Positions 6,522 through 57,415 of a stretch of DNA of 64,000 nucleotides are shown piece by piece. Origin of the DNA: an uncultured Bacilli bacterium. Lineage in GTDB: Bacteria; Bacillota_I; Bacilli_A; RF39; UBA660. The notes beneath the pieces were generated by a model that saw only the letters and a program-made list of their open reading frames with translations, was not told the origin of the DNA and did not search any database. Each line of letters opens with the position of its first letter. Positions within the stretch are counted from its first letter, which is position 1. Where the stretch lies: positions 274,155 through 338,154 of the forward strand of contig CAXHRJ010000002.1 in assembly GCA_964018915.1 (NCBI GenBank), in the 5' to 3' direction. The translations under genes were made by a program, and so were the position numbers.

Positions 6522-6550
6522 AAAAGTCATTTGCACTTTTCTTTTTTTTA
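6522..6550 (+). terminator. Rho-independent terminator
   Basis: Stem GAAAAGT/ACTTTTC with a 7-nt loop, followed by a T-run. Confidence 0.5.
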
Positions 6551-6598
6551 TGTTAGAATAGGAAACATTTGACAGGGGTGGTCAGAGTGAAACAGTGG

Positions 6599-8272: not shown

Positions 8273-8329
8273 AAACATTTCTTGATTTTTAAAAATGATT
8301 ATAGTACACTTGATATTAGAGGTGATAAA

Positions 8330-9430
8330 ATGAGTTTAACAGCAGGTATAGTGGGATTACCTAATGTTGGTAAATCTACTTTATTTAATGCAATTACAAA
8401 GAAAAATATATTAGCAGCTAACTACCCATTTGCGACAATTGATCCAAATGTTGGTGTGGTAGTTGTTCCAGATAGAAGATTAGAATTTTTAGAAAATTTA
8501 TATCATCCTGCTAGTTTAGTTCCAACAACTTTTGAATTTACAGATATAGCAGGATTAGTAAAAGGGGCATCTAATGGAGAAGGACTTGGAAATAAATTTC
8601 TTTCTCATATTAGAGAAGTAGATGCCATTGTAGAAGTAGTTAGATGCTTTGATGATAAAAATATCATTCATGTGGAGAATACTGTAGATCCTATTCGTGA
8701 TATTGAAATTATTGAACTAGAGCTTATTTTGGCAGATTTAGAGATTATTGAAAATAGAATTAATAAAATAGGAAAAAAAGCTGCTTTGTCAAAAGATAAA
8801 GAAGTAAAAAAAGAAGCAGAATTACTAACAAAATTAAAAGAAGCTTTAGAAACAAATAAATCTATTCGTAGTTTGGAATTAGATGAAGAAGAGTTAAAGA
8901 CAATTAAAGCGTTTAATTTATTAACTGCTAAACCAATTATTTATATGGCAAATGTGTCAGAGGATGACTTATTAGCAGGCACTAATGAATATGTAGAAAC
9001 AGTAAAAAAATATGCTGCAGATAATGCTTCAGAAGTGATTGTTGTATGCGCTAAAATAGAGTCTGATTTAAGTGAACTAGATAGTGAAGAAAAACAAACC
9101 TTCTTAGAAGAATTGGGAGTAAAAGAAAGTGGTTTAGATCAACTTATTAAAGCTACCTATTCTTTACTTGGACTAGAAACTTTCTTTACGTCTGGAACAG
9201 ACGAAGTGCGCGCTTGGACATTTAAAAAAGGAATGAAAGCTCCACAATGTGCAGGAATTATTCATACAGATTTTGAAAGAGGCTTTATTAAGGCTGAAGT
9301 TATGAGCTATGAAGACTTAGAGTCATGTGGTAATGAAAAAAGCGTAAAAGAAGCAGGAAAGATGCGTCTTGAAGGAAAAGATTATCTAATGCAAGATGGG
9401 GATATCTGTTATTTTAGATTTAATGTATAA
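8330..9430 (+). CDS. ychF: Ribosome-binding ATPase YchF (Obg family)
   Basis: G1 motif GIVGLPNVGKSTLFN, C-terminal TGS domain, and the position before rpsF as in Bacillus (yyaF). RBS AGAGGTGA precedes ATG 8330. Confidence 0.9.
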   Translation: MSLTAGIVGLPNVGKSTLFNAITKKNILAANYPFATIDPNVGVVVVPDRRLEFLENLYHPASLVPTTFEFTDIAGLVKGASNGEGLGNKFLSHIREVDAIVEVVRCFDDKNIIHVENTVDPIRDIEIIELELILADLEIIENRINKIGKKAALSKDKEVKKEAELLTKLKEALETNKSIRSLELDEEELKTIKAFNLLTAKPIIYMANVSEDDLLAGTNEYVETVKKYAADNASEVIVVCAKIESDLSELDSEEKQTFLEELGVKESGLDQLIKATYSLLGLETFFTSGTDEVRAWTFKKGMKAPQCAGIIHTDFERGFIKAEVMSYEDLESCGNEKSVKEAGKMRLEGKDYLMQDGDICYFRFNV

Positions 9431-9460
9431 AAAAGTTTCATCATTGATGAAACTTTTTAA
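9431..9460 (+). terminator. Rho-independent terminator
   Basis: AAAAGTTTCATCA-ttg-ATGAAACTTTT followed by T-rich sequence. Confidence 0.6.
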
Positions 9461-9641
9461 TATCTTCTTCTACGATATTTTTTACCATATTGCTTTTCTT
9501 TAGTAATACCACTAGAAAAATCGATTGTTTCTTCATTTCTTCTTCCTTTTACGATACTTTCTAATGTTAAAATAGATAGAAAGTGAGAGGTTTAATTTTT
9601 GTTTTTAAAAAAAGAGTGATATACTGTAGATGGTGAAGTAA

Positions 9642-34278: not shown

Positions 34279-34396
34279 TTAATGATTTAGGGCATTCTGG
34301 TTCGTCAACTGTAAAGAAAATTAAACAACCTACTTCACATGTACTTGCTACAAAAGCCCCAATGTGTGAAAGTATCCCAGCTAAAAATCCTAACAT
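34271..34396 (-). CDS. agrD: AgrD-like autoinducing-peptide precursor (41 aa; absent from the ORF track)
   Basis: MLGFLAGILSHIGAFVASTCEVGCLIFFTVDEPECPKSLIK. Amphipathic leader, Cys-containing core (CLIFF) and conserved C-terminal recognition motif (DEPECPKSL; compare C. perfringens ...CLWFTHQPEEPKSL). AGGAG RBS 7 nt before the ATG. Start overlaps the agrB stop. Confidence 0.8.
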   Translation of the reverse strand: MLGFLAGILSHIGAFVASTCEVGCLIFFTVDEPECPKSLIK

Positions 34397-35013
34397 ACTG
34401 CAACTCCTTCCTCTTTTTTGAGATAGTTCAAATAATTGTTATAAGGGAGTTTGAATATGCGATATGTTATAGGGGAAATCATGATATCTATTAATAGCAT
34501 GCTCATAAAAAAGCAATTTGATAAAAAGTTATTTGTTATAGAAATAGAGATGATTACGTATATGATTGCTGTCAGTGTTGCTAGTAATTTATGACGTAAT
34601 CTTTTTTGCTTATCTATAATTGGCCTTTTCTTCGTATCTGCAGGGCTGTTCTTGAAGATGAGAATGCTTGCTACTATTCCCAGTACATATTTTATCAGAA
34701 ATGGAACTCTCAAGTTCATTGCAACAAGTGGTATTCCCAGAAAAGCTACAGAAGATGTGATTAGACACACCCAGCTCTTCGTTGCATGTATACCATACGC
34801 ATTGTTTCTCAGAATTGCAAATATTATTAGGAAACACGCACATTCTCTTTGAATTTCTAGCAAATACGCTATTATTATGATAATAATTAGTTTTGTTATT
34901 GATAAATATACACCTGCTAATCCATATTCAATTTGTTCTAATTCCACATTTGTTAAATGTGGTTTTTCTTTTTTTATAAGTTTCATACAATTTCCTACAA
35001 AAACATTTCTCAT
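34390..35013 (-). CDS. agrB: AgrB-like membrane peptidase (AIP processing and export)
   Basis: Polytopic membrane protein of AgrB size with a basic cytoplasmic loop. Start MRNVF at 35013 has an AAAGGAG RBS. Directly upstream of agrD. Confidence 0.75.
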   Translation of the reverse strand: MRNVFVGNCMKLIKKEKPHLTNVELEQIEYGLAGVYLSITKLIIIIIIAYLLEIQRECACFLIIFAILRNNAYGIHATKSWVCLITSSVAFLGIPLVAMNLRVPFLIKYVLGIVASILIFKNSPADTKKRPIIDKQKRLRHKLLATLTAIIYVIISISITNNFLSNCFFMSMLLIDIMISPITYRIFKLPYNNYLNYLKKEEGVAVC

Positions 35014-35059
35014 ACTGCCTACTCCTTTATACGATTGAAATTGTAACATGAATGAATTT

Positions 35060-36804: not shown

Positions 36805-36830
36805 GAAGATTTCTTAATTATTTTTAATTT
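36800..36830 (+). terminator. Rho-independent terminator
   Basis: TTAAGAA-gat-TTCTTAA followed by a T-rich run. Confidence 0.5.
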
Positions 36831-36877
36831 GTAAATGCCAAGTTTTATGATATAATGGAGTTAGAAAGGATGATATT

Positions 36878-37519: not shown

Positions 37520-40006
37520 ATGAAGTTTTTAAAGAAAATATTTGATCATGAATATAAACAATTAGAGAGATTTCGCAAGATTGCTGACCAAGTAATAGCA
37601 CTTGAAGATGAATATGCGAAATTATCTGATAAAAAATTAAAAGCAAAGACAGAGGAATTCAAAAAACGTTTAGAAGACGGAGAAACATTAGAAGATATTA
37701 AGGTAGAAGCATTTGCAACTGCAAGAGAGGCTGCTTTCCGTGTTATTGGAGAAAGAGCTTACTACGTTCAGATTTTAGGTGGTCTTGCTATTCACTATGG
37801 TAATATTGCAGAAATGAAGACTGGTGAAGGTAAAACTTTAACAGCTACTATGCCAGCCTATTTAAATGCGTTAACTGGTGAAGGTGTTCATATTATTACA
37901 GTTAATGAATATCTTGCTGGACGTGATGCAGAATGGATGGGGGAAGTATATCGCTTTTTAGGACTTACAGTAGGCGTTAACTATAGGGAATTAACTCCTA
38001 GTGAAAAGAAAGAGGCTTACAATTGCGATATTCTTTATTCAACAAATAATGAAATTGGATTTGATTATTTAAGGGATAATATGGTTATTAAAGCTTCTGA
38101 TAGAGTTGCTAGGCCATTTAATTTTGTTATTATTGATGAGGTTGACTCTGTATTAATTGATGAGGCAAGAACTCCACTTATTATTTCTGGTGGACATATG
38201 CAGTCTGCTAATTTATATATCCAAACAGATAAGTTTGTAAAAGGATTAAAAGAAAATGAGGGGTATATCTATGATGAGCAAACAAAGGCTACTATTTTAG
38301 ATCAAACTGGTATTGAAAAAGCAGAAAAAGCATTTAAGGTTAATAACTTATATGATATTGAAAATACTAATTTAGTTCATTTTATTAATCAAGCATTAAA
38401 AGCTAATTTTTCAATGAAGAAAGATTTTGATTATGTAGTGGAAGATGACAAAGTAATTATTGTAGATCCTTTTACTGGTCGTTTAATGCAAGGAAGATCT
38501 TATTCTGATGGTTTACATCAAGCAATTGAAGCTAAAGAGGGAGTTACTATTAATGAAGAAACTAAGACTTTAGCAACTATTACGTTCCAAAATTTATTCC
38601 GCATGTATAAAAAACTTGCTGGTATGACAGGTACTGCTAAAACAGAAGAAGAAGAGTTTAGAGATATTTATAATATGTATGTTATCTGTATTCCAACAAA
38701 TAAGCCAGTTTCTCGTAAAGATTATGGAGATTTGCTATTTGCAACACAAGAGGGAAAATTTAATGCGATTGTAAAAGAGATTAAAGAACGTCATGCAGCA
38801 GGACAACCAGTATTAGTTGGTACTGTTGCTGTAGAAACGAGTGAGCTTATTAGTGAAAAGTTAAAAAAGGCAAAAGTTCCTCATGAAGTATTAAATGCTA
38901 AAAATAATGCTCGTGAAGCTGAAATTATTGCTAAAGCTGGTGAAAAAGGCGCTGTAACAATAGCTACTAATATGGCAGGACGTGGAACAGATATTAAGAT
39001 TAATGATGAAGTTAAAGAATTAGGTGGTCTTTGCGTTATTGGTACAGAACGCCATGAATCACGCCGTATCGATAATCAGTTGCGTGGACGTTCTGGTCGT
39101 CAAGGAGATCCAGGATTCTCTCAATTCTGTGTATCTTTTGAAGATGATTTAATGGTTCGATTTGGTACTGATAAAGCAAAAGGATTACTTGCTAGAATGG
39201 GATTTGATGGGGAAGCTGCTATTCGTAATAAAATGCTTTCTAATTCTATTGAAGCAGCACAGAAACGTGTAGAAGGTAATAACTTTGATGTTCGTAAAAC
39301 ATTGCTAGAATATGATAATGTTATTAATGAACAAAGAGAAGTTATTTATGAAAAAAGAAATGAAATATTGGATTCTGAGTCTATTCATGAAACGATATTA
39401 GATAGTTTCCATAACTTTGTTGAAGATGTGTTCTATGAACATATGGAAGATGGAGATTTAAGTCAAGAAGATAGAGAAGAAATGGCTACTTATTTTACAG
39501 AAATGTTAGGAACAGAAATTTCAGCTGCTGAATATGAAGAAAAAGATTTAGATGCTGAAATTGAATATATTTATGGAAGATTAGTAGAAAACTATGAAAA
39601 TAAAATTGAAGAGGTTCCAACTGAAATAGTTAATGAGTTTGAGAAAGCTATTACGCTAAGGGTAATTGATACTTATTGGATGGAACATATCAATACAATG
39701 GCTCATTTAAGAGAAGGTATTTATTTACGTGGATATGCGCAAGAAAATCCATTACGTGCTTATAAGAGTGAAGGATATGAATTGTTTGATAATTTATTAG
39801 CACGTATTGACAGACAAGCTTCCATTTATTTATTAAAGGCTGAAGTAAGACAAAACGTAGAACGTAAGAAAGTAGCAGAAGGTGTTGCTAATAACGATTC
39901 CAATAAAGTAAAAAAGCAATCTCCAAAAAGAGTTGCGAAAGTAGGAAGAAATGACAAATGCCCTTGTGGCTCAGGTAAGAAATATAAGCAATGTTGTGGA
40001 AAATAA
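37520..40006 (+). CDS. secA: Preprotein translocase ATPase SecA
   Basis: DEAD-like motor motifs (MKTGEGKT; DEVDSVLIDEARTPLIIS) and a C-terminal zinc-binding tail (KCPCGSGKKYKQCCG). Confidence 0.95.
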   Translation: MKFLKKIFDHEYKQLERFRKIADQVIALEDEYAKLSDKKLKAKTEEFKKRLEDGETLEDIKVEAFATAREAAFRVIGERAYYVQILGGLAIHYGNIAEMKTGEGKTLTATMPAYLNALTGEGVHIITVNEYLAGRDAEWMGEVYRFLGLTVGVNYRELTPSEKKEAYNCDILYSTNNEIGFDYLRDNMVIKASDRVARPFNFVIIDEVDSVLIDEARTPLIISGGHMQSANLYIQTDKFVKGLKENEGYIYDEQTKATILDQTGIEKAEKAFKVNNLYDIENTNLVHFINQALKANFSMKKDFDYVVEDDKVIIVDPFTGRLMQGRSYSDGLHQAIEAKEGVTINEETKTLATITFQNLFRMYKKLAGMTGTAKTEEEEFRDIYNMYVICIPTNKPVSRKDYGDLLFATQEGKFNAIVKEIKERHAAGQPVLVGTVAVETSELISEKLKKAKVPHEVLNAKNNAREAEIIAKAGEKGAVTIATNMAGRGTDIKINDEVKELGGLCVIGTERHESRRIDNQLRGRSGRQGDPGFSQFCVSFEDDLMVRFGTDKAKGLLARMGFDGEAAIRNKMLSNSIEAAQKRVEGNNFDVRKTLLEYDNVINEQREVIYEKRNEILDSESIHETILDSFHNFVEDVFYEHMEDGDLSQEDREEMATYFTEMLGTEISAAEYEEKDLDAEIEYIYGRLVENYENKIEEVPTEIVNEFEKAITLRVIDTYWMEHINTMAHLREGIYLRGYAQENPLRAYKSEGYELFDNLLARIDRQASIYLLKAEVRQNVERKKVAEGVANNDSNKVKKQSPKRVAKVGRNDKCPCGSGKKYKQCCGK

Positions 40007-40029
40007 ATAGGTGACAGTGTGAAAGAACT

Positions 40030-40458
40030 ATGGATATGGATGGTAATGTAACTTACTTTGGTGAGTGGACAGAACAAATTGATAAACATAATCGTCGTCA
40101 AGTTCATGATTATAGTTTTGAAGATGATGTACTATCTAAAGACACATTTCGAAGATTAAATTTGAAATACGATAGAGAAATGGGATTCTTTGGAAAAGCC
40201 ATAGCCTTCGCTTTACAAGGCATGGTAGTTATGCAAAATAGGACGAGTCAGGGGATTAGTAGTTTTATAATGTATGCTTCAGAACAATTAACAGAGAAAC
40301 AAAAAGATAAATTTGTTGAACTGTATCCCCTTTTATCATCTTTTGCAGAAGTTAATGTTGTAATTCCTAAATCTGTATGTATTACAGATGAGGATACAAT
40401 CGATAGCGTAGATGATTATTATGAAATGTATGGTATTTTCCCTTCAAAAGTAAGATAG
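40030..40458 (+). CDS. Hypothetical protein (142 aa)
   Basis: ORF only; weak RBS; no motif recognised. Confidence 0.35.
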   Translation: MDMDGNVTYFGEWTEQIDKHNRRQVHDYSFEDDVLSKDTFRRLNLKYDREMGFFGKAIAFALQGMVVMQNRTSQGISSFIMYASEQLTEKQKDKFVELYPLLSSFAEVNVVIPKSVCITDEDTIDSVDDYYEMYGIFPSKVR

Positions 40459-40474
40459 TTTATGGGGAGCAAAT

Positions 40475-41188
40475 ATGGATGAATATATAAGAGATAATAT
40501 TTTTAAAGAATATCAAAGTCGTTATCAAGATTTAGTAACATTAAATCAAAAAATAGAGGATATTAAGATAAATAGAAAACCTATTCTCATTGAATTCTTA
40601 GGATCGGCTAGAAGTGGCAAATCTACTTCAATCGAATTAATTTCAGATGTTTTAAGAAAGCATGGATTAAAAGTTTTTGTAGTAGATGAGGAAAAAGTAA
40701 AATTAACAAAAGTGATTAATGAAAGCCGAAGTAAAAAAATGCAAGTAGACAGTTTAGATTATACGAATCAAGTGATTGATGAGAAGGTTTTGCTGTTTGA
40801 TAGTTTTTATCAAAATGATGAGGATGTTATTATTTTTGACAGAGGTATTAATGACGAATTTATTTGGTTAGATACTTTTGGTGCTACGAATTCTAAAATA
40901 GAAGAATATGACAAAAAGTTACAGGATAGGAAAGTAGATATTTTGATTATTCAAACATGTGATGTAGAGGTAAGTTTAAAAAGAAAATATTTTAATTCAT
41001 TATCTATAATGCCCAATAAATGGACAAACTTTGAAACATTATCTAAGTATTTAGGTGGGTTAGAGAAGGTATCTAAATATTTTAATAATCATGCAAAAGT
41101 AATTCATTATATAGATAGTTCTAAAATAGATAAAGTAGAGGTTGCAATGGAGATTTGTAATCAAATAATAGATGATATAAATCAGTAA
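40475..41188 (+). CDS. P-loop NTPase, nucleoside/nucleotide kinase-like
   Basis: Walker A FLGSARSGKST and a DR motif (IFDRGINDE) reminiscent of the dNK/TMPK fold. Confidence 0.4.
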   Translation: MDEYIRDNIFKEYQSRYQDLVTLNQKIEDIKINRKPILIEFLGSARSGKSTSIELISDVLRKHGLKVFVVDEEKVKLTKVINESRSKKMQVDSLDYTNQVIDEKVLLFDSFYQNDEDVIIFDRGINDEFIWLDTFGATNSKIEEYDKKLQDRKVDILIIQTCDVEVSLKRKYFNSLSIMPNKWTNFETLSKYLGGLEKVSKYFNNHAKVIHYIDSSKIDKVEVAMEICNQIIDDINQ

Positions 41189-41213
41189 AATGAGGCTTAG
41201 AAAGAGGGATATT

Positions 41214-42281
41214 ATGGCAAATAAAAAGAAAAATACAGAAGAAGAAACAGTAAAAAATAAAAAAAATAATGTAAAAAAGAATGATTCAAAGAAAAATGAA
41301 GTAAAAAAAGAACCAGTAAAGAAAGATGAAAAAGTAGAAATTGAAAGCCCTATAAAAAGTGGAATGAGTGAAACAACTAGAGGTATGATTATTGGAATGA
41401 TTATTATGGGGCTTATTTCGATTATTATTATTTTATTAATTTTAGGAAAAAATGATAATGCTAATAAACCTAGTGGTTCTGGAAGTAATTCTTCAAATAT
41501 TACTGCCAGTGCAGATTATGCAAAATTATCAGCAGCAGATAAGAAAAAAGGTAGCGAGGAAATGCAAAAATTTTATCAATATTTTGATAAAGATAAGCCA
41601 ACGTTAATTGTGTTTGCAAGTACAAGTTGTGGATGGTGTGAGTTACAGAAACCAATTGTAGAAAGAATTGGAAAAATGTATGATTTAGATTATCTATTTA
41701 TGGATGCAACAAAATTAGAAGGTAGTGAAGTATATGATGTCATTTCTTATTTAGGGATTGAAGGAACTACACCTACTTCTCTTGTAGTACAAGATGGAAA
41801 AGTTTTAAGCTCATTAAATGGAATGCGAGAAGGTAAAGATTTTGTTGAATTTTTAGTAGATGGTGGAGTTTTATCAAAAGGTTCTACCTATAAAGATGAA
41901 GAAAACTTAATTGTTGTAACTTATGAAAAATTTGAAGAACTATTAAAAGGAAAAGATACAAGTGTTGTTTTATTTGATTTCTATGCAGTTTCAAGTTCTG
42001 TTTGTGGAGAAAGATGTTTAGATCAAAGAATTGTTATTAATGAAATTGCTAAAGAAAATAATATTCCAGTATACCATTTACCTTTAGCGAATACGACAGA
42101 TGATTTTATTGATAAATTAGGAGAATGGGGATATTCAACTGACGATTACAAAGAAAATAAATCTGTAGGAATTCCGTTATTAATGTTTGTACGTGATGGA
42201 AAATTAGTATGGTATCAAAATGGTAATATGACAGAAGATGATATTCGTACAGAAATGAAGAATCATAAAATAATTAAATAA
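41214..42281 (+). CDS. Membrane-anchored protein with two thioredoxin-fold domains (CGWC and CGERC)
   Basis: Lys-rich N-terminus, one TM helix, a Ser/Gly linker, then two Trx-like modules each with a CxxC-type motif and a cis-Pro TPT/IP motif. AGAAAGAGGGA RBS before ATG 41214. Confidence 0.6.
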   Translation: MANKKKNTEEETVKNKKNNVKKNDSKKNEVKKEPVKKDEKVEIESPIKSGMSETTRGMIIGMIIMGLISIIIILLILGKNDNANKPSGSGSNSSNITASADYAKLSAADKKKGSEEMQKFYQYFDKDKPTLIVFASTSCGWCELQKPIVERIGKMYDLDYLFMDATKLEGSEVYDVISYLGIEGTTPTSLVVQDGKVLSSLNGMREGKDFVEFLVDGGVLSKGSTYKDEENLIVVTYEKFEELLKGKDTSVVLFDFYAVSSSVCGERCLDQRIVINEIAKENNIPVYHLPLANTTDDFIDKLGEWGYSTDDYKENKSVGIPLLMFVRDGKLVWYQNGNMTEDDIRTEMKNHKIIK

Positions 42282-42302
42282 ATGATTTAGGAAGTGGTTT
42301 AT

Positions 42303-43166
42303 ATGAGTAAAGATAAGAAAAAAGAAAATCTTATTAAGAATAAAACTTTAATGGTTGGTCTTATTTCTGTTATGATTATTGTTTTAGTATCGTTATTAGG
42401 ATATGTGATTTTTACTAAGATATCTAAATACCAAGACGAGAAAAAAACAATGCAAGAATTTCGTGAAAAGATGGAAAGTAAAGAGTTATCCATTATTTAT
42501 TACATGCATACTGATTGTCATTTTTGTGAAATGGAAAAACCTATTTTAGAACAAATTGCTAAGGACTATGATTTTGAGTATTTAACAATTGATTCTAATA
42601 AATTGACAAAAAAAGAAAATAATGAAGTAAAAGATGCTTTAAAAATCGAAGGAAGAACGCCAACTATCGCAATTGTAAAAGATGGTGAAGTGCAGGCTAC
42701 TCATGTAGGATATCTTGAAGGTTATAAATTAGTAGAGTTTTTTGTGAAAGCTGAATTTTTAGATGAGGGTTCAACTTATAAACCTGAAGCCAATTTAACT
42801 TTTATAGAATTTTCTGAGTTTGAAGAATTAAAAGAAGAAGAAAAAACATCTGTTTTGGTGTTAGGCTCAGCAACTTGTGACTATTGTAAAGCTGTACGTC
42901 CTATTTTAAGTAATCTTAGCAAAGCTTATAATATTCCAATCTATTATTTAGGATTAAATTATATTGGAAGTTCTAATGGTGACAAGTTTGAAAGTTATTT
43001 GAAAGATATGGGATATGATGAAGAGACTTTTGTAAACTCTGGTAAGTATAGTACACCAGCAGTATTAGTTATTAAAAACGGAAAAATAGTTTCTCATATA
43101 GAAGGTTACCAAGATACAGCTGATTATATCAAATATTTTAAAGAGCAAAAAGTGATTGAAGAATAA
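42303..43166 (+). CDS. Membrane-anchored double thioredoxin-fold protein (CHFC and CDYC); paralog of 41214..42281
   Basis: Same architecture, with a conserved inter-domain linker (GSTYK.E.NL....EFEEL). GGAAGTGG RBS. Confidence 0.6.
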   Translation: MSKDKKKENLIKNKTLMVGLISVMIIVLVSLLGYVIFTKISKYQDEKKTMQEFREKMESKELSIIYYMHTDCHFCEMEKPILEQIAKDYDFEYLTIDSNKLTKKENNEVKDALKIEGRTPTIAIVKDGEVQATHVGYLEGYKLVEFFVKAEFLDEGSTYKPEANLTFIEFSEFEELKEEEKTSVLVLGSATCDYCKAVRPILSNLSKAYNIPIYYLGLNYIGSSNGDKFESYLKDMGYDEETFVNSGKYSTPAVLVIKNGKIVSHIEGYQDTADYIKYFKEQKVIEE

Positions 43167-43187
43167 AGGGAAAAGGGAGTGCTATAA

Positions 43188-44474
43188 ATGAAATGTGAGA
43201 GTTGTGGACATGTTAATAGTTCTTACTCTATTGTTTGCGAAAAATGTGGGACTCCTTTAAAAATAGAAGAAAATGAATTGCTACAAAAAAAGTATCATGA
43301 TAAAGGTAAGCATATTGATATAGAAGAAATAGAAGAGATACATGATGAACCTGATTTCAATAAAATAAGAAAACAGGTTAGAAGAATGATTGTATTCATA
43401 ATTGTCTTTGTTCTTGCTTACCTTCTTTATTTTTTAGCAATTTATCTATTAGATGAAGGATCAAAAGAGGTTTTAAATACTTATTCAGATTATATGGAGA
43501 ATTCTTCATTAGCGTTATTTTATTTTGGCGATGAAAGGGAATTAGATTCTCTTTGTGAAGACTATTCTAAAAATTATGGATTTGATTATTTAAATATTCA
43601 AACTAATAAAATTAGTAAAAAAAATAGAAAAAAAATTCAAAAAGAATTAAATGTTTACAATGTTACTGCGGCCTTAGTGATTGTAAAAAATGGTGTTCCT
43701 GTAGCCTCTTTTACACAGATAGATGAGGAAGAAAAGATATTGGAGTTTTTACAGATTAATGAAGTAATTCCCCAATATTTAGGGGATACAGAAGCAGAAT
43801 TAGCATCCTTTAAAAATGCTTTTGAATCTGAAAATCCAGTTTTATTATATTTCCCCACTAGCTATCATAACAATATAGAAAATAGTGAAGAGTCTATTAA
43901 GTCTATAGCAGAGCAGTACGATTTAGAGTATCATGAAGTAAAAGGATATTTACTAAGCAAAAGACAATTATTAAAAATAATGTCACAGTTAGGTTATACA
44001 GAAATACAGGAAGATTTGATTTTATATATTGTTGATGGAAAAGTAGAAAAAGCAGTAACGGATACAGAGAAAAAGTCTTATTTTAAATTATTGTCATCTT
44101 ATGGTATAATTGATACATCAAGTGCAGATTACTTGGTTCACATTTCTGAAGAGCAATTTTTCGAATTGATGAAAGATGAAAAATCAAAACATGTTATTTT
44201 GATTGGCTCTGATGATTGTAATTATTGTGATAGGGTAAAACCAGTTTTGGGACAAATTGCTAATCAAAAACAGATTGTTATCTACTATTTGAATGTTTCA
44301 AATAAGGGGGATGCAATTTCAGAAAAAGTAAAGGAAATGGGATTGGAGACTGGGATTACTAATACACCATTTATGATGATTGTAGAAAAAAATACAATAT
44401 TGGGACATATAGTTGGCCCAGCTAAAAAAGATTTATATTTAGAAACATTAACAGAGATGGGTGTAATACGATAG
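43188..44474 (+). CDS. Zinc-ribbon + TM + double thioredoxin-fold protein (first domain lacks CxxC, second CNYC); third paralog
   Basis: N-terminal CxxC-x11-CxxC (CESCGH...CEKCG), a TM helix, and two Trx-like modules with cis-Pro (NTPF). Confidence 0.55.
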   Translation: MKCESCGHVNSSYSIVCEKCGTPLKIEENELLQKKYHDKGKHIDIEEIEEIHDEPDFNKIRKQVRRMIVFIIVFVLAYLLYFLAIYLLDEGSKEVLNTYSDYMENSSLALFYFGDERELDSLCEDYSKNYGFDYLNIQTNKISKKNRKKIQKELNVYNVTAALVIVKNGVPVASFTQIDEEEKILEFLQINEVIPQYLGDTEAELASFKNAFESENPVLLYFPTSYHNNIENSEESIKSIAEQYDLEYHEVKGYLLSKRQLLKIMSQLGYTEIQEDLILYIVDGKVEKAVTDTEKKSYFKLLSSYGIIDTSSADYLVHISEEQFFELMKDEKSKHVILIGSDDCNYCDRVKPVLGQIANQKQIVIYYLNVSNKGDAISEKVKEMGLETGITNTPFMMIVEKNTILGHIVGPAKKDLYLETLTEMGVIR

Positions 44475-44484
44475 GAGGTATATC

Positions 44485-44934
44485 ATGAATGATAGTGTTT
44501 ATGACAAGATAATGGAACACACAAAAAAATATCCAGGTACAGTAGCTTGGAGAAAAAAAGCACATGCAAAGGTAATAGAGAAGCATTTAAATGAAGGAGA
44601 AGTAGTATTGTATGCTTTTTGTTGTCAAAAAGGATTTTCTTCTTTAGAAATGTTTAATACTTATGCTGTAGTTATTACCAATAAAAGAATTTTAATGGCA
44701 CAGAAACGTGTTCTATTCGGTTATTTATTGTTATCTATTACACCAGATATGTTTAATGATTTAACAATTAAGACTGGGATTATATGGGGAAAAGCATGCA
44801 TAGATACAGTAAAAGAGGTTGTAGTTTTATCTAATTTATCAAAAAGCTCTGTTGATGCGATAGAGACGGCTATTACAGAATATATGATGTCAGAAAAAAA
44901 GAAGTATGTGAAAATCGCAAAGGAAAGTGTATAA
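44485..44934 (+). CDS. Hypothetical protein, possibly a bacterial PH-like domain
   Basis: AVVITNKRILMAQK segment resembles bPH domains. Weak call. Confidence 0.3.
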   Translation: MNDSVYDKIMEHTKKYPGTVAWRKKAHAKVIEKHLNEGEVVLYAFCCQKGFSSLEMFNTYAVVITNKRILMAQKRVLFGYLLLSITPDMFNDLTIKTGIIWGKACIDTVKEVVVLSNLSKSSVDAIETAITEYMMSEKKKYVKIAKESV

Positions 44935-44981
44935 CTTTTCTTTTTTTCAAAAAAAGGATATAATGAAATTAGTGGTGGTAT

Positions 44982-46244
44982 ATGAAGAAAAAATATAAAA
45001 TAAAATATAAATCAGTTATTATTTTTGCGTTTTTAATATTAACAATTTTTTGTTGTATTCGTTTTTATTCTAAGGGGTATACAATTCATTATAAATTGCA
45101 AGAGGGAAAATATGAAGTAACAGAAATTTATACAAAAAATGCTAAAAAGGAAATTGATAATTATTATATAGAAGTAAAGGATAATGATATTACTTACGGG
45201 TTTGAATTTTATCATAGATTTTCTAAAAAAAGAAAAGTTGTTAGTGATATTATCAGTTATCAAGGGGACTATTCGTGTGTTTTACCAATAATTGATGGAA
45301 AAGCGCAAACAGATTTATTATGTTATAAGAATTATCGTTATTATTTTTATAATTCTATTATTGGCGAAGATTCTGCGTTGGATAAGTTTGTAGAGGAAAT
45401 AGATTTTGATTTATATGATAGGCATGATTGGCAAGATCAAATTACTGATGGGAAAAAAGAAGAAAATATTATTTTATATTCTAAAAATTTAGTAGCTGAT
45501 CATTCTTTCATGGTTACTAATTTAAAGGGTGTTTATCAAGCAAAAGAAAATGTATTAGATGTTTCGATTTTTGCAAAGGATATTTATCAAAGAGATTTAA
45601 GTGCATTTGTTGGGAATTATTATGTGACTGCTGATTATTCTGAAAGTCAACAGTTTAGAACTTTTTACTTTGTTGATATGATAACTGGTAAAAAAGAGGA
45701 ATCCAAAGCACCAAATTATATTTCTTTTGATTCCTATATTCAAGGAATAGTAGATGATAAACTTTATATTTATGATCGGGATAATGAAAAGCAATATAGT
45801 ATTTCTCCTAAGAAGAAGGTAATAGAGGAAATCGGAAATAGTAAAAAGAAAATAAAATATTATAGTAATGGAGACTGGGATAAGATTACTACAACGAAAG
45901 CTAATAAAACGCTTTTGTTTGAAGATGTAACTATAGATTTAGATTTCCAAAAATATAGTGCAGTTTATCATATTGGAGGAGAAGTTTCAGGTTATTACTA
46001 TTTATTAGAAGAGTCAAAAGATGGGTACATTCTTTATAGGACGCCATCTCAAAATAAAAAGTTGATTACTTATATAACAACTGTTTCTGATAAAAAGGAT
46101 ATTTTCTTTTTAGATGATTATGTATATTTCCAAGAAGGCGGCAAGATAAAATATTATCATGATGAGACAGGAGTTCGCACCTTATTAGAATATAGTGAAT
46201 TAGAATTTAATAAAAACCTAATATTTGGGGTATGCAAAAAATAG
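44982..46244 (+). CDS. Hypothetical membrane-anchored Tyr/Lys-rich protein
   Basis: N-terminal TM helix. The beta-rich remainder has no motif I recognise. Confidence 0.4.
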   Translation: MKKKYKIKYKSVIIFAFLILTIFCCIRFYSKGYTIHYKLQEGKYEVTEIYTKNAKKEIDNYYIEVKDNDITYGFEFYHRFSKKRKVVSDIISYQGDYSCVLPIIDGKAQTDLLCYKNYRYYFYNSIIGEDSALDKFVEEIDFDLYDRHDWQDQITDGKKEENIILYSKNLVADHSFMVTNLKGVYQAKENVLDVSIFAKDIYQRDLSAFVGNYYVTADYSESQQFRTFYFVDMITGKKEESKAPNYISFDSYIQGIVDDKLYIYDRDNEKQYSISPKKKVIEEIGNSKKKIKYYSNGDWDKITTTKANKTLLFEDVTIDLDFQKYSAVYHIGGEVSGYYYLLEESKDGYILYRTPSQNKKLITYITTVSDKKDIFFLDDYVYFQEGGKIKYYHDETGVRTLLEYSELEFNKNLIFGVCKK

Positions 46245-46268
46245 AGGAATTTATTCCTCTTTTTTCTT
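46243..46268 (+). terminator. Rho-independent terminator
   Basis: AGAGGAAT-ttat-TCCTCT followed by TTTTTC. Confidence 0.5.
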
Positions 46269-46274
46269 AAAAAT

Positions 46275-46303
46275 TTGGTTAATTGCATAGGTTATGATAT
46301 AAT
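46275..46303 (+). promoter_or_regulatory. Putative trpS promoter: TTGGTT, 17 nt spacer, TATAAT
   Basis: Hexamers at canonical spacing. The leader is about 75 nt; no T-box specifier or AGGGTGG antiterminator core is seen. Confidence 0.4.
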
Positions 46304-46381
46304 GAATAAAGGTGATGTCTATGACAAAACGATGGTGCCTTTTATAGAAATAATTATTTTTTATAAAGGGAGGATGAAAAT

Positions 46382-47389
46382 ATGAAAACAATTATTACAG
46401 GAGATAGACCAACAGGAAGGATGCATTTAGGTCATTATTTTGGCTCTATTCAAAATAGAGTAAAAATGCAGTATGATTATGACACTTATATTTTGATAGC
46501 CGATGTTCAGGCGTTAACGGATAATTTTGATAATCCAGATAAAGTTAGAAAGAATGTTTATGAATTAGCGCTTGATTATTTAGCGTCAGGAATTGATCCA
46601 AAGCATACACATATTTATATTCAGTCTTATATTCCTGAAGTGGCAGAATTAACAGTTTATTATTCTAATTTAGTAACGGTATCTAGACTATATAGGAATC
46701 CCACAACAAAACATGAAGTAGGACAAAAGACAGAAAAGTTTGGTGAGAGTGGAGAGTCTATTACTTATGGGTTCTTAGGATACCCAGTTAGTCAAGCTGC
46801 TGATATTACAGCACTTGATGGGGATGTTGTTCCAGTAGGAGAAGATCAAGTTCCTCACATTGAACAAACTCGCGAAATTGTTAGAAAATTCAATTCTATT
46901 TATGGAGAAACATTAAAAGAGCCAGAGGCTTGCTTAAGTGAAAACCCTAGAATTAAAGGCTTAGATGGCAATGAAAAAATGGGAAAAAGTCTAGGAAATG
47001 CTATCTATTTAGCAGACGATGAAGAAACAATTACAAAAAAAGTAATGGGGGCAGTAACAGATCCAAGTAAGATTAAAAAGGATGATCCAGCCAATCCAGA
47101 AATCTGTATGGTTTATTATTACCATAAACTACTTAAAAATCCTAATTTAGAGACAGTATGTTCTGAATGTAAGTCAGGATGTAGAGGCTGTGTTGCTTGC
47201 AAAAAAGAACTTATTAAAGTAATGATGGAGTTTTTAAAACCACTTCAGGAGAGAAGAAAATATTATGAGGAACATCCTGAAGAAGTAGAACAAATCTTAA
47301 AAGAAGGAACAGAAGCAGCTCGTATTAGAGCAAAAGAAGTAATGAAGCGTGTACGTAAGAGTATGAAGCTTGACTATTTTGAAGAATAA
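46382..47389 (+). CDS. trpS: Tryptophan--tRNA ligase with a Cys-rich insertion (possible Fe-S site)
   Basis: HIGH (HLGHY) and KMSKS (KMGKS) motifs. Cluster C-x19-CxxC-x3-C-x2-C-x2-C at about nt 47103-47200. Confidence 0.9.
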   Translation: MKTIITGDRPTGRMHLGHYFGSIQNRVKMQYDYDTYILIADVQALTDNFDNPDKVRKNVYELALDYLASGIDPKHTHIYIQSYIPEVAELTVYYSNLVTVSRLYRNPTTKHEVGQKTEKFGESGESITYGFLGYPVSQAADITALDGDVVPVGEDQVPHIEQTREIVRKFNSIYGETLKEPEACLSENPRIKGLDGNEKMGKSLGNAIYLADDEETITKKVMGAVTDPSKIKKDDPANPEICMVYYYHKLLKNPNLETVCSECKSGCRGCVACKKELIKVMMEFLKPLQERRKYYEEHPEEVEQILKEGTEAARIRAKEVMKRVRKSMKLDYFEE

Positions 47390-48572: not shown

Positions 48573-50171
48573 ATGGGGTGGAAGTATATGTTAAAATATG
48601 AACGATTAGGATTAGAGAATACGATAGAAAAGTTTTTATCAATTAAGCAGAAAGAGAATGCTAAAAATATTCGTAAAGCAGTAAGAAGAAAGAAGAGAAA
48701 AGATTTAAAGCTAGGAGAAAGGCTTGCTTCTATTTTTGACTTGCATTTTCGTAAATCTTTTGCTATTGATTTAGCTGATTTAATAAAATCCTTTAAAGAA
48801 TTCAATACTACTGCAACGATTTATACATTACCAGCCGATTTAAAAAAGGATTTAGAATGTATAGGAGCTCACACAACAAGTTCTACTTTTTCTGAATTAT
48901 CTACTGCGATTAATTCTGCTTTATCAGAATCGCATGCTTCCTCTAGGCTTTCTTTAGCACATAAGAATAATAGATTATTAAGGGCATTAAAAAAGTCTAA
49001 ATTAGAATCAAAATATATTACCTATTGGGAAGATGGTAAGGCAATTAATTCGTCATTAGAGGCAGGTATTATTCATTTAGGTAATAAAAAACTTTCTGCT
49101 TTAAGCTTAGCTGAAAGAAAAGGTCTAGTGCTATTTGATACTACTAATGCAGATACAATAGAGCCACCACTTTCTGATGAAGAGGCTTGTTTGACGGAAT
49201 TAGAAGATATGGTTAGAAAAGGAGAAATAGCAGAAAGTGAAATTACTAAGAATGTAAGTGAAATTCGAATCATATTTAGAAAGCGACATGTTTTAGATGA
49301 GTTAAATGCTAAAATTTGGAAGCTTATATGCAACCTTCAAAAAGAAAAAAGTAATAGTGGTGTAGATTTTTCGGCCGCTAATAAAATATTACAAACTATT
49401 TATGATAGAAATAGAAGAGAAATTTCTAGATGTGATAATTATCTAGGCAGATTCGATTTTGCTACTCTAGTGGAAAAAGTAGCATGGGTTAATAATAAAA
49501 GGGAACAAGAGGCATGGACTCGTGCTCATTTAGAAGCTTTAGATAAAGTTGGAGAAGTAACTCCTAGAAGTCCACAAGTAATAGAACAAATTAAAAGGAG
49601 TAATAGAATTACAATGGAGGCTAAGAAAGATTTGCGTCATATAGCAATTCAAGAGCTTCAATTGAATGGAGAATTGGTGGAAACACATCAACATGTAGGA
49701 AGTGTGGTTGTTCCAGATTCTGTTGATGAGGACACTCATGAATCCATGATTCGTAAGAAAATAGATGAAATGATAGCGATTGCTATCCAAACTCCAGAAG
49801 AAAGAGCAGTATCTTATTTGAGGGATATGGGAATTAATACAACGAAAACCGCTGTAGATGAGATGCCACAAGAATCTGCTGAAAGTTATCGTGAAATATT
49901 TAAGGATGAATCTTATAGCTTTGATATTGAAAGAATTAGAAAGATTAAAGAATTAATCGATGCACAGAGAAGAGATAAAGCAAATTCTATTTGCAAAGAA
50001 TATATTCGTTATCGTGCTGCTTTAGGTGATAAACGTTCTGCTTTAACTTTCTCAGAATATGCGAGAGCTCTATATTTACAAGAAAACATGGATATATCTA
50101 TGATTGATGAAAAAATCATGACAGATGATGTAGCACTAGTAGCTGATGAGGTTGGCGAAAGAGTTCGTTAA
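48573..50171 (+). CDS. Hypothetical protein (about 530 aa), no recognised domain
   Basis: Long ORF; start is either 48573 or 48588. Its C-terminal ~35 aa (CKEYIRYRAALGDKRSALTFSEYARALYLQEN) are paralogous to the small ORF 50315..50545. Confidence 0.5.
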   Translation: MGWKYMLKYERLGLENTIEKFLSIKQKENAKNIRKAVRRKKRKDLKLGERLASIFDLHFRKSFAIDLADLIKSFKEFNTTATIYTLPADLKKDLECIGAHTTSSTFSELSTAINSALSESHASSRLSLAHKNNRLLRALKKSKLESKYITYWEDGKAINSSLEAGIIHLGNKKLSALSLAERKGLVLFDTTNADTIEPPLSDEEACLTELEDMVRKGEIAESEITKNVSEIRIIFRKRHVLDELNAKIWKLICNLQKEKSNSGVDFSAANKILQTIYDRNRREISRCDNYLGRFDFATLVEKVAWVNNKREQEAWTRAHLEALDKVGEVTPRSPQVIEQIKRSNRITMEAKKDLRHIAIQELQLNGELVETHQHVGSVVVPDSVDEDTHESMIRKKIDEMIAIAIQTPEERAVSYLRDMGINTTKTAVDEMPQESAESYREIFKDESYSFDIERIRKIKELIDAQRRDKANSICKEYIRYRAALGDKRSALTFSEYARALYLQENMDISMIDEKIMTDDVALVADEVGERVR

Positions 50172-50803: not shown

Positions 50804-52300
50804 ATGTTTTTAAAAAAATGTAAAAATTGCGGTATAAAAATTCCAAGAAAAGCAAATTTCTGCCCAGGATGTGGACATCAAAAAAAGAAGAATATTGCTT
50901 TTTTCTTTTTAAAAATGTTAATCCTATTTTTATTCGTTCAAGTAATTACTACTTCTATACCAGCTATTCTTACTGGTTCTATTCTTCATTATAAATATGG
51001 GATAAATTTTGTTATAGAAGCAATTTGGGGAATGACAATTTTAATTGTTATGTTATTAAGTGGTAATTCGTATGTATTTACACAAAAAAGGGAAAAATTC
51101 TTTCAATCTTTAAAATTAGGTGCAGCTTTTTTAGGTATGACCTTTCTTATTCTGCCAGGATCTATTTCTTCTTTACAAGGAACGAGCATCTGGGTATGTA
51201 TTAATTTAATCTTGTATTGTGCAGCCATAGGAATTACAGAAGAATTTTTATGTAGGGGCTGGGTTCAAAATGAGTTCTTAGAGAGATTTGGTAAAAATAG
51301 AAAACAAGTTATTTTATCAATTGTGTTATCTTCTTTTATATTTGGTGGAATGCATATTAGTAATATTTGGAATGCTAATCAAGGAGTTTTTGAAACCTTT
51401 TTGCAAGTAATTCAAGCAACTGCTTCAGGAGCTCTCTTAGGTAGTATCTATTATCGTACAAAGAATATTTGGACAGTAGCTTTTTTACATGGTTTCTATG
51501 ATTTCGCTATTATGCTTGGAGACGTTAGTGTTATTAAATCTTGTACAACAGGAGAACCAACTCCTTCTATTGCTATGTATCATATATTTACTTCTCTTTT
51601 GGTAATTGCATTTTATGTTATTAGTTCTATGATATTACTTAGAAAGAGTACAATGAATAAAATGTTAGATGCTAATTATGAACAAAATGTAGAAGAATAT
51701 TTAGCAGAGTCTAAATTTACTAAAAACTTAAAAATGGCCTTGATTATAGTAGTGATTATCTTCTTTTTACCATTTGGAAGTAATTTAGAAGGATATGAAG
51801 ATTACTATATTTGTTATAGTTATGATGAGTTAGAAATTGGTGATTTTGATGAGCACTATTTCAATCGTCTTACTTATACTATCACATATGATACAACAGA
51901 TATTATAACAGATTTACCACTCCATTATGAATTTGAGGTTTTCTATGATGATAAAATAGGTATTCAAAATAAAATAACAAAAGAAGTTATTTATTTAAAT
52001 TATGAAAATATATATGGTTTTGAAGTAATTGATAATGAGGATACTTTTATTATTCTGATTTATGATTATGATGATGATTCAATCATCTATTATATGAAGA
52101 TGTATAAAGAACTCCTTTCTAATGATTGGCAAACTTTACAGGCAATGAAAACATCATTTCAATCTTATAGTATGCCTAATTTAGGTAAATTGGGATATTT
52201 AACAGTAGAGGAAACTAATTATAAATATCCACTTATGATATCTAGTATGGGTGATTATTTTATCATTGATGAAGAAGATGATTTATATTTATTAAGATAG
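50804..52300 (+). CDS. CPBP-family (CAAX/Abi) intramembrane metalloprotease with an N-terminal zinc ribbon and a large C-terminal soluble domain
   Basis: CKNCG...CPGCG ribbon. Multi-TM region with CPBP motifs EEFLCRGW (EExxxR), FGGMHISN (FxxxH) and HGFYDF. About 200-aa C-terminal extension. Confidence 0.65.
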   Translation: MFLKKCKNCGIKIPRKANFCPGCGHQKKKNIAFFFLKMLILFLFVQVITTSIPAILTGSILHYKYGINFVIEAIWGMTILIVMLLSGNSYVFTQKREKFFQSLKLGAAFLGMTFLILPGSISSLQGTSIWVCINLILYCAAIGITEEFLCRGWVQNEFLERFGKNRKQVILSIVLSSFIFGGMHISNIWNANQGVFETFLQVIQATASGALLGSIYYRTKNIWTVAFLHGFYDFAIMLGDVSVIKSCTTGEPTPSIAMYHIFTSLLVIAFYVISSMILLRKSTMNKMLDANYEQNVEEYLAESKFTKNLKMALIIVVIIFFLPFGSNLEGYEDYYICYSYDELEIGDFDEHYFNRLTYTITYDTTDIITDLPLHYEFEVFYDDKIGIQNKITKEVIYLNYENIYGFEVIDNEDTFIILIYDYDDDSIIYYMKMYKELLSNDWQTLQAMKTSFQSYSMPNLGKLGYLTVEETNYKYPLMISSMGDYFIIDEEDDLYLLR

Positions 52301-56823: not shown

Positions 56824-57415
56824 ATGAAAAAGGTGTTTGTAGTAGTTATCATATTATTTTTGTTTCCAATAGGAGTAGAAGCTTCTAGGGGATGTTGTTC
56901 TCACCATGGTGTGTAGTGCAGATGGTAGGCAAGTGTGTAAAGATGGTACTTTAAGTCCTTCTTGTACTTGTACTCCTCCAACTGTTTATGAATGTATGGA
57001 TAGTAGTGCGAAAAATTATAATCCTAAAGCCAATAAAAGTAATGGAAAATGTACTTATTATGTAAAAGGATGCACAGACGAAAATTCTATCAATTATAAT
57101 TCTAAAGCAGAAAAAGATGACGGAAGCTGTGTAAAAAAGGTTTCTGGTTGCACTGATGAAAATGCACTTAATTATAATAGTAAGGCAAATGTAGACGATG
57201 GAAACTGTGAGTATAGACAAGTAGAAATAAAAGATAATGTGGAAGAAAAAGATTCAAATTCTAATCAATTGCAAAGTACTAATGAAAATCGTTTGGATGA
57301 TATAAAGGAAGAAAAAGTAGCAGATTCAGAAGATAGCGGTTCAGCTGCTATAAGTTTGGGAATTCTAGGAGTTGCAGGATATTTTATTGGAAAAAGCAGA
57401 AAAAATAAAAAATAA
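56824..57415 (+). pseudogene. Secreted/anchored Cys-rich repeat protein interrupted by a +1 frame discontinuity (signal-peptide ORF 56824..56916, body 56906..57415)
   Basis: AGGAG RBS before ATG 56824, which encodes MKKVFVVVIILFLFPIGVEASRGCCSHHGV then stop. The body has three C-(T/M)-D-x-N/S-x-x-NYN-x-KA-x-x-DDG-x-C repeats and a C-terminal TM anchor (AAISLGILGVAGYFIGKSRKNKK). The body's own ATG has no RBS. Confidence 0.5.

Follow-up and report, generated by a model that had tools for sequence, protein, structure and literature searches.

A conserved gene core of tandem-thioredoxin, bPH and putative ectoprotein genes beside a variable slot between secA and trpS of uncultured gut Bacilli

The gene content of the interval between secA and trpS was analysed in a DNA stretch of 64,000 nucleotides (hereafter the window) from an uncultured Bacilli bacterium (contig CAXHRJ010000002.1). 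The window is AT-rich (GC about 30%) and carries on its + strand, in this order, csp, a GH25 muramidase-like gene, hpf, secA, seven open reading frames (ORFs) designated here P1 to P7, trpS, rplM and rpsI. The ribosomal S10/spc region lies farther upstream, so that the block region belongs to the core of the chromosome. The original prediction, made from the letters of this DNA, regarded P1-P7 as a single accessory operon of uncharacterised genes. Using a combination of approaches (profile searches, fold comparisons, consensus scans and synteny across relatives), we found that no function is indeed annotated for any of these genes, and that the two other parts of the proposal do not hold: thioredoxin (Trx) genes, the bPH gene P6 and P7 form a core that keeps its place between secA and trpS across a clade of uncultured Bacilli, whereas P1 and P2 occupy a variable slot and have no conserved linkage to P3-P7. 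The seven co-directional ORFs lie where they had been predicted; their coordinates, taken from the ORF list, and those of the flanking features are as follows:

37520-40006, + strand: secA, the upstream flank of the block
40030-40458, + strand: P1, 142 amino acids (aa)
40475-41188, + strand: P2
41190-42281, + strand: P3 (likely true start at the ATG in 41214)
42294-43166, + strand: P4 (likely start at the ATG in 42303)
43188-44474, + strand: P5
44485-44934, + strand: P6, 149 aa
44982-46244, + strand: P7, 420 aa
46243-46260, + strand: intrinsic-terminator-like hairpin (AGAGGAAT-TTAT-TCCTCT, then TTTTTTC) found by the consensus scan
46382-47389, + strand: trpS, the downstream flank of the block

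All seven ORFs are real genes and not chance reading frames, because each of them has conserved homologues. The two internal start codons proposed for P3 and P4 are each preceded by a good ribosome-binding site. The genes are as tightly packed as had been claimed, with measured gaps of 1-47 nucleotides (nt) instead of 1-48 nt (16, 1, 12, 21, 10 and 47 nt, in order from P1 to P7), and they are separated from secA by 23 nt and from trpS by 137 nt. Over the stretch that runs from the secA end to the P7 end, no terminator-like site was found between genes by the consensus scan. The hairpin with its T-run overlaps the P7 stop codon and is a terminator-like element that may close the transcription unit; the single other such site on the + strand between the secA start and the P7 end (38188-38210) is located inside secA and looks like a chance match. 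The genes are thus plausibly co-transcribed, and secA probably belongs to this transcription unit as its upstream part, because of its 23-nt distance from P1 and the lack of a terminator-like site between them. With the best upstream promoter-like site at 36829-36856, before hpf, the most economical reading of the spacing and scans would be a single transcript running from hpf or secA through the end of P7.

P3, P4 and P5 are all recognised by the Pfam Thioredoxin model (PF00085) above its cut-off of 23.5 bits (43.0 bits, E 4.8e-11, for P3; 52.7 bits for P4; 31.6 bits, at residues 317-416, for P5), and all 19 orthologues tested also match the Trx-fold model above threshold. They had been described as three membrane-anchored paralogues with two Trx domains each. 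The anchor holds for all of them and the domain number for P3 and P4, but hidden Markov models (HMMs) built from the orthologous domains count three domains in P5, and canonical CxxC motifs occur only in the first domain of P3 and in the last domain of P5, beside those of P4. P3 possesses a Lys-rich, predicted cytoplasmic tail, one transmembrane (TM) segment and two Trx-like domains (118-230 and 237-362), the first with a CGWC motif and the second with a non-canonical CGERC at the cysteine positions. P4 comprises one TM segment and two Trx domains with the motifs CHFC (75-78) and CDYC (195-198); it also matches the Pfam models TraF and Thioredoxin_2. P5 starts with a Zn-ribbon (CxxC-x10-CxxC; the Pfam zinc-ribbon matches are sub-threshold), followed by one TM segment and three Trx-like domains (91-196, 202-310 and 316-427), of which only the last carries a CxxC motif (CNYC). 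The window thus encodes seven Trx-like domains in this block, four of them with a canonical CxxC.

The catalytic residues of this family are strongly conserved. In 26 sequences (P4 and 25 orthologues), the cysteine pairs C75/C78 and C195/C198 and the dipeptides T122-P123 and T254-P255 are 100% conserved, while the residues between the cysteines vary in a limited manner: the first domain has C[SGA][YWF]C (CSYC, CGYC or CSWC) and the second one mostly CSHC, and also CPHC. Such dipeptides can be compared with those of well-known enzymes, as CGYC is found in DsbC, CPYC in DsbG, CPHC in DsbA and CGHC in protein disulfide isomerase (PDI), all with an aromatic residue or histidine in third position, a position occupied by proline in the reductases thioredoxin (CGPC), ResA (CEPC) and TlpA. 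Among solved structures, the orthologue profile finds its best relatives in the PDI-family proteins TXNDC5 and PDIA4, together with archaeal protein disulfide oxidoreductase (PDO), at E about 1e-10 to 1e-8. Each Trx domain is about 115 aa long and adopts the plain fold, with no DsbA helical insert. Because the N-terminal tails are Lys/Arg-rich and the Zn-ribbon of P5, of a cytoplasmic type, precedes its TM segment, these proteins are predicted to have their N-terminus inside and their C-terminus outside the cell (type II topology). P3-P5 are paralogues resulting from the lineage-specific expansion of one ancestral gene for a membrane protein with two Trx domains, P4 being the ancestral, clade-wide member of the module.

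P6, previously noted as a small possible bPH-domain protein, proved to be a soluble protein matching the full-length bPH_3 domain (PF14470) above threshold (37.2 bits for a cut-off of 23; model positions 1-94 of 95); its N-terminus bears an additional conserved segment that includes W22-R23 and H27. To our knowledge, no function has been established for the bPH_3 family. Within the block, P6 is the best conserved gene, with 50-84% identity where P7 drops to 27-67%, and it has 3755 homologues, with no solved structure found to be related to it by sequence. P6 also matches the C-terminal half (149-285 of 331) of the PHROG family phrog_2700 (E 1.2e-12), which indicates that P6-like PH domains occur in phage proteins.

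P7 is, as predicted, a TM-anchored and Tyr-rich protein. Tyrosine makes up 11% of the protein. According to a confident model, one TM helix (residues 3-29) is followed by a Tyr-rich all-beta ectodomain, and this ectodomain is modelled as an N-terminal beta domain, which contains the invariant cysteine pair described below, followed by about six four-stranded propeller-like repeats. Comparison of the fold with solved structures returned propeller-like matches, none of them close, and P7 has no match in Pfam, NCBIfam or PHROG. Among 5.8 billion clustered proteins, P7 has only 194 homologues, every one of them from metagenome-assembled genomes (MAGs) of uncultured Bacilli or Mollicutes; the P7 family is undescribed. 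The sole invariant cysteines of P7, C99 and C114, lie on neighbouring strands (98-104 and 113-116), which makes P7 a plausible disulfide-bonded client protein.

To follow these genes across relatives, we used 64 loci (designated by L numbers) that were found via P7 with a pattern scan, at one genome per species, in gut MAGs from rabbit, ruminant, chicken, mouse and human; their ORFs were called, and both the proteins of the window and iterated HMMs served as queries against them. All 64 loci belong to uncultured gut Bacilli/Mycoplasmatota; Candidatus Pelethosoma, which is among the genomes concerned, is placed in Mycoplasmatota. The recurrent core consists of a TM-anchored tandem-Trx gene, then the bPH gene, then P7, and its usual place is between csp-hpf-secA and trpS-rplM-rpsI. 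The bPH gene is located directly upstream of P7 in 36 of the 52 loci with enough flank, and one or several TM-anchored Trx genes occur within 3.5 kb upstream of P7 in 31 of these 52. When both flanks are available, a Trx gene is present on either side of P7 in 31/42 loci. TrpS follows P7 in 30 loci out of 46, and secA is found upstream in 9 out of 31. In L059 and L060, where the P7 identity is just 29-36%, secA abuts or overlaps the Trx gene, which is followed by bPH and P7, and in L014, L030 and L037 secA stands 168-770 nt from the Trx gene. The Trx-bPH-P7 order is therefore syntenic between secA and trpS across the clade, down to about 30% identity in P7, and this core is a part of the clade's core genome that carries no annotated function.

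The number of Trx genes varies in this core, with three in the sub-clade of the window, two in a second sub-clade (one P4-like and one P5-like) and one in the rest. P3 orthologues are confined to the closest sub-clade (L004, L005, L007, L008, L013, L040 and L077), and the P5 orthologues of the second sub-clade are about 370 aa long, lack the Zn-ribbon and carry a CKYC motif. In a second arrangement (L010, at 5832-9523; also L011, L012, L022, L027, L033, L043 and L044), the genes after P7 encode a LysM protein, a single-domain TM-Trx protein (CSHC), an AAA ATPase, a TM protein of the DUF6568/'PedC-like' type (PF20207) and a putative methylase of the SpoU/TrmL type, the latter being called by eye from its sequence. 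This arrangement is a further link of P7 to Trx-fold membrane proteins. In a third arrangement, there is no Trx gene near P7, which has polC upstream, a divergent CotZ-like gene adjoining and a patatin-like phospholipase gene between itself and trpS. The CotZ-like gene, exemplified by L019 (9454-9966, - strand, divergent beside the P7 homologue), encodes a protein rich in cysteines that matches spore coat protein Z (PF10612, 52.6 bits), and is found beside P7 in 18 loci, L019 and 17 others (e.g. L024, L025, L031, L034-L036 and L062). The presence of a CotZ-like gene is unexpected in MAGs of about 1.3-1.5 Mb labelled Bacilli or Mollicutes.

The same comparison, extended to the close relative L077, gave a different picture for the first two genes of the block. 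P1 is a soluble protein from a rare, small family, and a lineage-specific insertion between secA and P2. As anticipated, it belongs to no recognised family, since it has no match in Pfam, NCBIfam or PHROG. When 1.84 billion representative proteins were searched exhaustively with HMMER, 29 relatives of about 150 aa were retrieved, with G5, G11, H26, F30, G64 and Q91 as conserved residues; from these 29 relatives with several invariant residues, we conclude that P1 is a real gene. Iterated HMM searches found P1 in none of the 64 related loci, and it is also missing from L077, where secA (94% identical to that of the window; 78% for P7) is followed after 26 nt by P2. Elsewhere, P1 homologues have unrelated neighbours: they follow capsule genes or Dus, or stand between genes for an acetyltransferase and a CN-hydrolase.

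P2 is a divergent (deoxy)nucleoside-monophosphate kinase-like P-loop protein with the thymidylate-kinase fold, and probably a stand-alone enzyme of nucleotide metabolism. The earlier description of P2 as a P-loop kinase-like protein is supported by its fold, which possesses the P-loop, the DR motif and the LID of thymidylate and deoxynucleoside kinases, but all matches to thymidylate-kinase/AAA_28 models are sub-threshold (18.9 bits for TIGR00041, whose cut-off is 83.25, and 24.1 bits for PF02223, whose cut-off is 27). P2 differs from these kinases by an identity of just 14-18% and by an extra 30-residue helical extension at its N-terminus. It adjoins Trx genes in L013 and L077 only, is found at other positions in L026 and L047, and stands in MAGs of Clostridia beside YfbR-like, NUDIX, radical-SAM and dUTPase-like genes.

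The space between secA and the first Trx gene behaves as a slot that contains zero to six unrelated genes, varying among relatives. It was delimited as follows:

window, 40007-41189: slot holding P1 and P2
L013, 1387-6241: slot also holding a KilA-N protein gene and a gene for a 670-aa double GT2 protein
L050, 3547-7377: slot
L008, about 5274-5849: slot

Across relatives, the slot contents include genes for a KilA-N protein, a double GT2, NTPase_I-T, purine nucleoside phosphorylase (PNP), a dCTP-deaminase/dUTPase-like protein (occurring with DUF1653), a metallophosphoesterase and an acyltransferase. The genes in the slot are mostly nucleotide-metabolism genes and differ from one relative to another. 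We place P1 and P2 outside the module because they have no conserved linkage to it, because their neighbours elsewhere are unrelated to it, and because P1 is missing in L077 and in the 64 loci. Neither of them is functionally tied to P3-P7.

Several features around the block deserve a mention in their own right. The 137 nt before trpS (46245-46381) contain, beside the terminator-like hairpin, a promoter-like extended -10 sequence, TGATATAAT. In many Firmicutes, a T-box accompanies the gene for tryptophanyl-tRNA synthetase; an Rfam search found neither a T-box nor another leader before trpS at the gathering threshold. Directly after rpsI, a 532-aa ORF (48573-50171, + strand) has no Pfam match, and ORFs of 527-545 aa are found likewise after rpsI in L003, L005, L008 and L013, which are close relatives. 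Farther downstream, a 498-aa protein (50804-52300, + strand) has a Zn-ribbon (CKNC...CPGC) followed by TM segments, an N-terminal design that is also that of P5. A 169-aa ORF with 10 cysteines (56906-57415, + strand; MVCSADGRQVCKDGTLSPSCTCTPP...) may encode a secreted Cys-rich protein, and as such would be a candidate client of disulfide-forming enzymes. On the other side of the block, divergent upstream of csp-hpf-secA, lies an AgrB-family gene (34390-35049, - strand; PF04647, 110 bits), which occupies the same position in L014, L039 and L059. This suggests that an Agr-type cyclic-peptide quorum-sensing gene is conserved in the clade.

From these data, we propose, with a confidence somewhat above even, that the block is a patchwork made of the variable P1/P2 slot, of secA-linked extracytoplasmic thiol-disulfide oxidoreductases (P3-P5) and of the conserved P6/P7 pair. 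The ancestral gene, expanded to P3-P5 in the lineage of the window, would encode a two-Trx-domain membrane protein of type II (N-in, C-out). The Trx genes are encoded, and probably transcribed, together with secA. Anchored at the membrane, their products would form or reshuffle disulfide bonds in proteins leaving the Sec translocon. The CxxC dipeptides, the PDI/PDO relatives and the N-in, C-out topology all argue for P3-P5 being extracytoplasmic oxidoreductases of the oxidase/isomerase type. By analogy with the b domains of PDI, the Cys-less domains in P5 and the second P3 domain, which is degenerate, may operate as non-catalytic substrate-binding modules. P6 and P7 would form a conserved pair travelling with the Trx gene, in which P6 would be cytoplasmic, and maybe a membrane-proximal adaptor, while P7 would most likely be a disulfide-bonded client or a binding platform beside the oxidoreductases.

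The following points weigh against this proposal. First, a search for multi-pass membrane ORFs with cysteine pairs, in the window and in about 1 Mb of related flanks, returned no redox partner of the DsbB, VKOR or CcdA/DsbD type. Such a partner may not be needed, since some clostridial DsbA homologues are reported to work without a DsbB partner, being recycled by small disulfides (PMC12453122). Second, the hosts are probably gut anaerobes. Third, the threonine preceding the cis-proline and the CGYC-type motifs would fit a reductant-dependent isomerase equally well as an oxidase. Fourth, the parity of cysteine numbers (an approach reportedly that of Dutton et al. 2008) came to 24 even and 20 odd families among the predicted exported proteins of the clade, a sample too small to weigh either way, as compared to 216 and 257 among the cytoplasmic ones. 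Fifth, the N-in, C-out topology comes from a crude charge count, and the charge bias of P4 is weak. Sixth, co-transcription is deduced from gene spacing and consensus scans, and the promoter scan, with 67 sites for 68.4 in shuffled sequence, shows no excess and is uninformative on internal promoters. Seventh, an interaction of P6 or P7 with the Trx proteins is putative, and in 11 of the 42 loci for which both flanks are available, P7 stands more than 3.5 kb from any Trx gene, which indicates that P7 does not strictly depend on an adjacent Trx gene.

A rival reading is a reductive pathway, in which reductases fed by CcdA/DsbD, similarly to ResA, StoA or Etrx, would keep extracytoplasmic cysteines reduced or repair oxidised proteins (for instance in sporulation or oxidative stress), with P7 as a target. 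Membrane-anchored, plain Trx domains of about 115 aa without the DsbA insert would suit such a function, the invariant Thr-cisPro is generally also typical of the reductase/isomerase class, and the Cys-rich CotZ-like protein beside P7 in 18 loci hints at spore-related biology. However, the x-Tyr/Trp/His dipeptides are those of oxidases and isomerases rather than the CxPC of Trx, ResA, StoA and TlpA, and no CcdA/DsbD-like, ResB/C or Msr gene was found in the window or in the related flanks. We regard the reductive pathway as unlikely.

A bolder version of our proposal would be that the Trx-bPH-P7 module is an undescribed, Sec-coupled oxidative folding apparatus of a reduced-genome lineage devoid of DsbA/DsbB. 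In such an apparatus, the PDI-like Trx proteins would act outside the cell; P7 would be their obligate partner, either a client-holding platform or, through its cysteine pair, a redox relay like DsbI; and the bPH protein would tether or regulate the system from the cytoplasm. We consider this version doubtful and present it as a speculation.

Still less probable is a cluster for the maturation of a bacteriocin or another secreted peptide, in which the Trx proteins would be accessory disulfide isomerases of the PedC/BrcD type acting on a nearby exported Cys peptide. PedC is a putative thiol-disulfide oxidoreductase that improves the potency of pediocin (PMC4919988). The PedC/BrcD model TIGR01295 matches P4 (E 3e-12) and P5 (E 7e-9), faint matches to the 'PedC-like' PF20207 occur in close homologues, one of P5 among them, and the AgrB-family gene stands 5 kb upstream on the opposite strand. 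Yet the TIGR01295 scores (46.5 bits for P4 and 35.7 bits for P5) are far under the equivalog cut-off of 120, and neither the block nor the conserved neighbourhoods contain a precursor peptide, an immunity gene or a C39-peptidase ABC exporter. Furthermore, bacteriocin loci are strain-variable, whereas the Trx-bPH-P7 genes are syntenic, clade-wide, in a core region of ribosomal-protein genes, secA and trpS.

The view that all seven genes make up one accessory operon with a single function, possibly on a horizontally acquired island, draws on their tight spacing, their common direction, the lack of terminator-like sites between them and the slightly lower GC content of the block (0.26-0.29 vs 0.31-0.33 for the flanks, with the same GC skew). 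It has largely been refuted by the synteny and is now very improbable, as P1 is dispensed with even beside a 94% identical secA, P1 and P2 homologues keep other company elsewhere, P3-P7 orthologues hold the same chromosomal position across the clade, and the ORF list of the region contains no integrase, repeats or tRNA. Finally, TraF/TrbB thiol-disulfide isomerases of a conjugative element are the least credible explanation, because the Pfam TraF match (PF13728; 48.4 bits for P4 with a threshold of 23, and above threshold also in all 19 orthologues tested) spans only the generic, C-terminal Trx-fold part of the model (positions 110-210 of 224), the weak matches to the NCBIfam TrbB (41.9 bits vs 132) and TraF-like (44.8 bits vs 232) models are far under their cut-offs, no other transfer genes are near, and the core-chromosome location is conserved. 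The PedC/bacteriocin, TraF/TrbB conjugation and acquired-island candidates were all set aside because of score cut-offs and synteny.

Returning to the patchwork with its extracytoplasmic oxidoreductases, this proposal bears on a poorly understood process, namely the formation and correction of disulfides in the exported proteins of anaerobic Gram-positive-type bacteria lacking DsbA/DsbB. A secA-linked set of membrane-anchored tandem-Trx proteins with a PDI-like domain composition would give a compact model for such a pathway, in a lineage that is abundant in animal and human guts and for which only metagenome assemblies turned up. The module further adds P7, a confidently folded family for which neither a Pfam match nor a close solved structure was found, and P6, which belongs to a large family; the literature found on bPH/PF14470 and on tandem extracytoplasmic thioredoxins in Firmicutes contains no description of this module. 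The locus is also a warning, as the unrelated genes of a patchwork came to resemble one operon through their close packing and common orientation.

Through its Trx proteins, the core would belong to the known extracytoplasmic thiol-disulfide oxidoreductases, and can be compared with four groups of systems. First, similarly to PedC/BrcD (TIGR01295; PF20207, DUF6568/'PedC-like'), P3-P5 are proteins of Firmicutes that are anchored in the membrane by their N-terminus and carry a Trx-fold CxxC domain, predicted to be extracytoplasmic; the model matches of P4 and P5 are weak but specific, and several relatives encode a genuine PF20207 protein a few genes after P7. They differ from PedC/BrcD by their two or three tandem Trx-like domains with sub-cut-off scores, by the lack of bacteriocin or exporter genes here, and by their conserved core-genome location.

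Second, in Helicobacter and Campylobacter, a DsbC/G-like protein, DsbK (HP0231), pairs with DsbI, a DsbB-like membrane protein that exposes a beta-propeller outside the cytoplasm (PMC4597128). This combination of an oxidoreductase with a propeller-exposing membrane protein resembles that of the Trx genes with P7. Unlike DsbI, P7 has a single TM helix, and neither a DsbB-like multi-pass domain nor a CxxC loop, so that the resemblance is to be taken as an analogy only.

Third, the PDI family (PDIA4/ERp72, TXNDC5) and the PDO of archaea and thermophiles share with P3-P5 the presence of several Trx folds per chain, the mix of catalytic and non-catalytic domains and the CxHC/CxYC sites, and the NCBIfam model of PDO, TIGR02187, is matched as well. 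The similarity is distant, and P3-P5 are bacterial proteins with a single-pass anchor, predicted to lie outside the cell, whereas PDO is cytoplasmic. We know of no Ero1-like or other oxidant for proteins of the P3-P5 type.

Fourth, DsbC, DsbG and DsbA of Proteobacteria, and BdbD, SdbA and MdbA of Gram-positive bacteria, are extracytoplasmic Trx-fold oxidoreductases acting on Sec-exported proteins, as P3-P5 would do. P3-P5 are distinguished by their tandem-domain architecture, and they have neither a helical insert of the DsbA type nor the dimerisation domain of DsbC. Motifs of the CGYC, CPYC and CPHC types recur in the P4 family, as does the Thr-cisPro loop.

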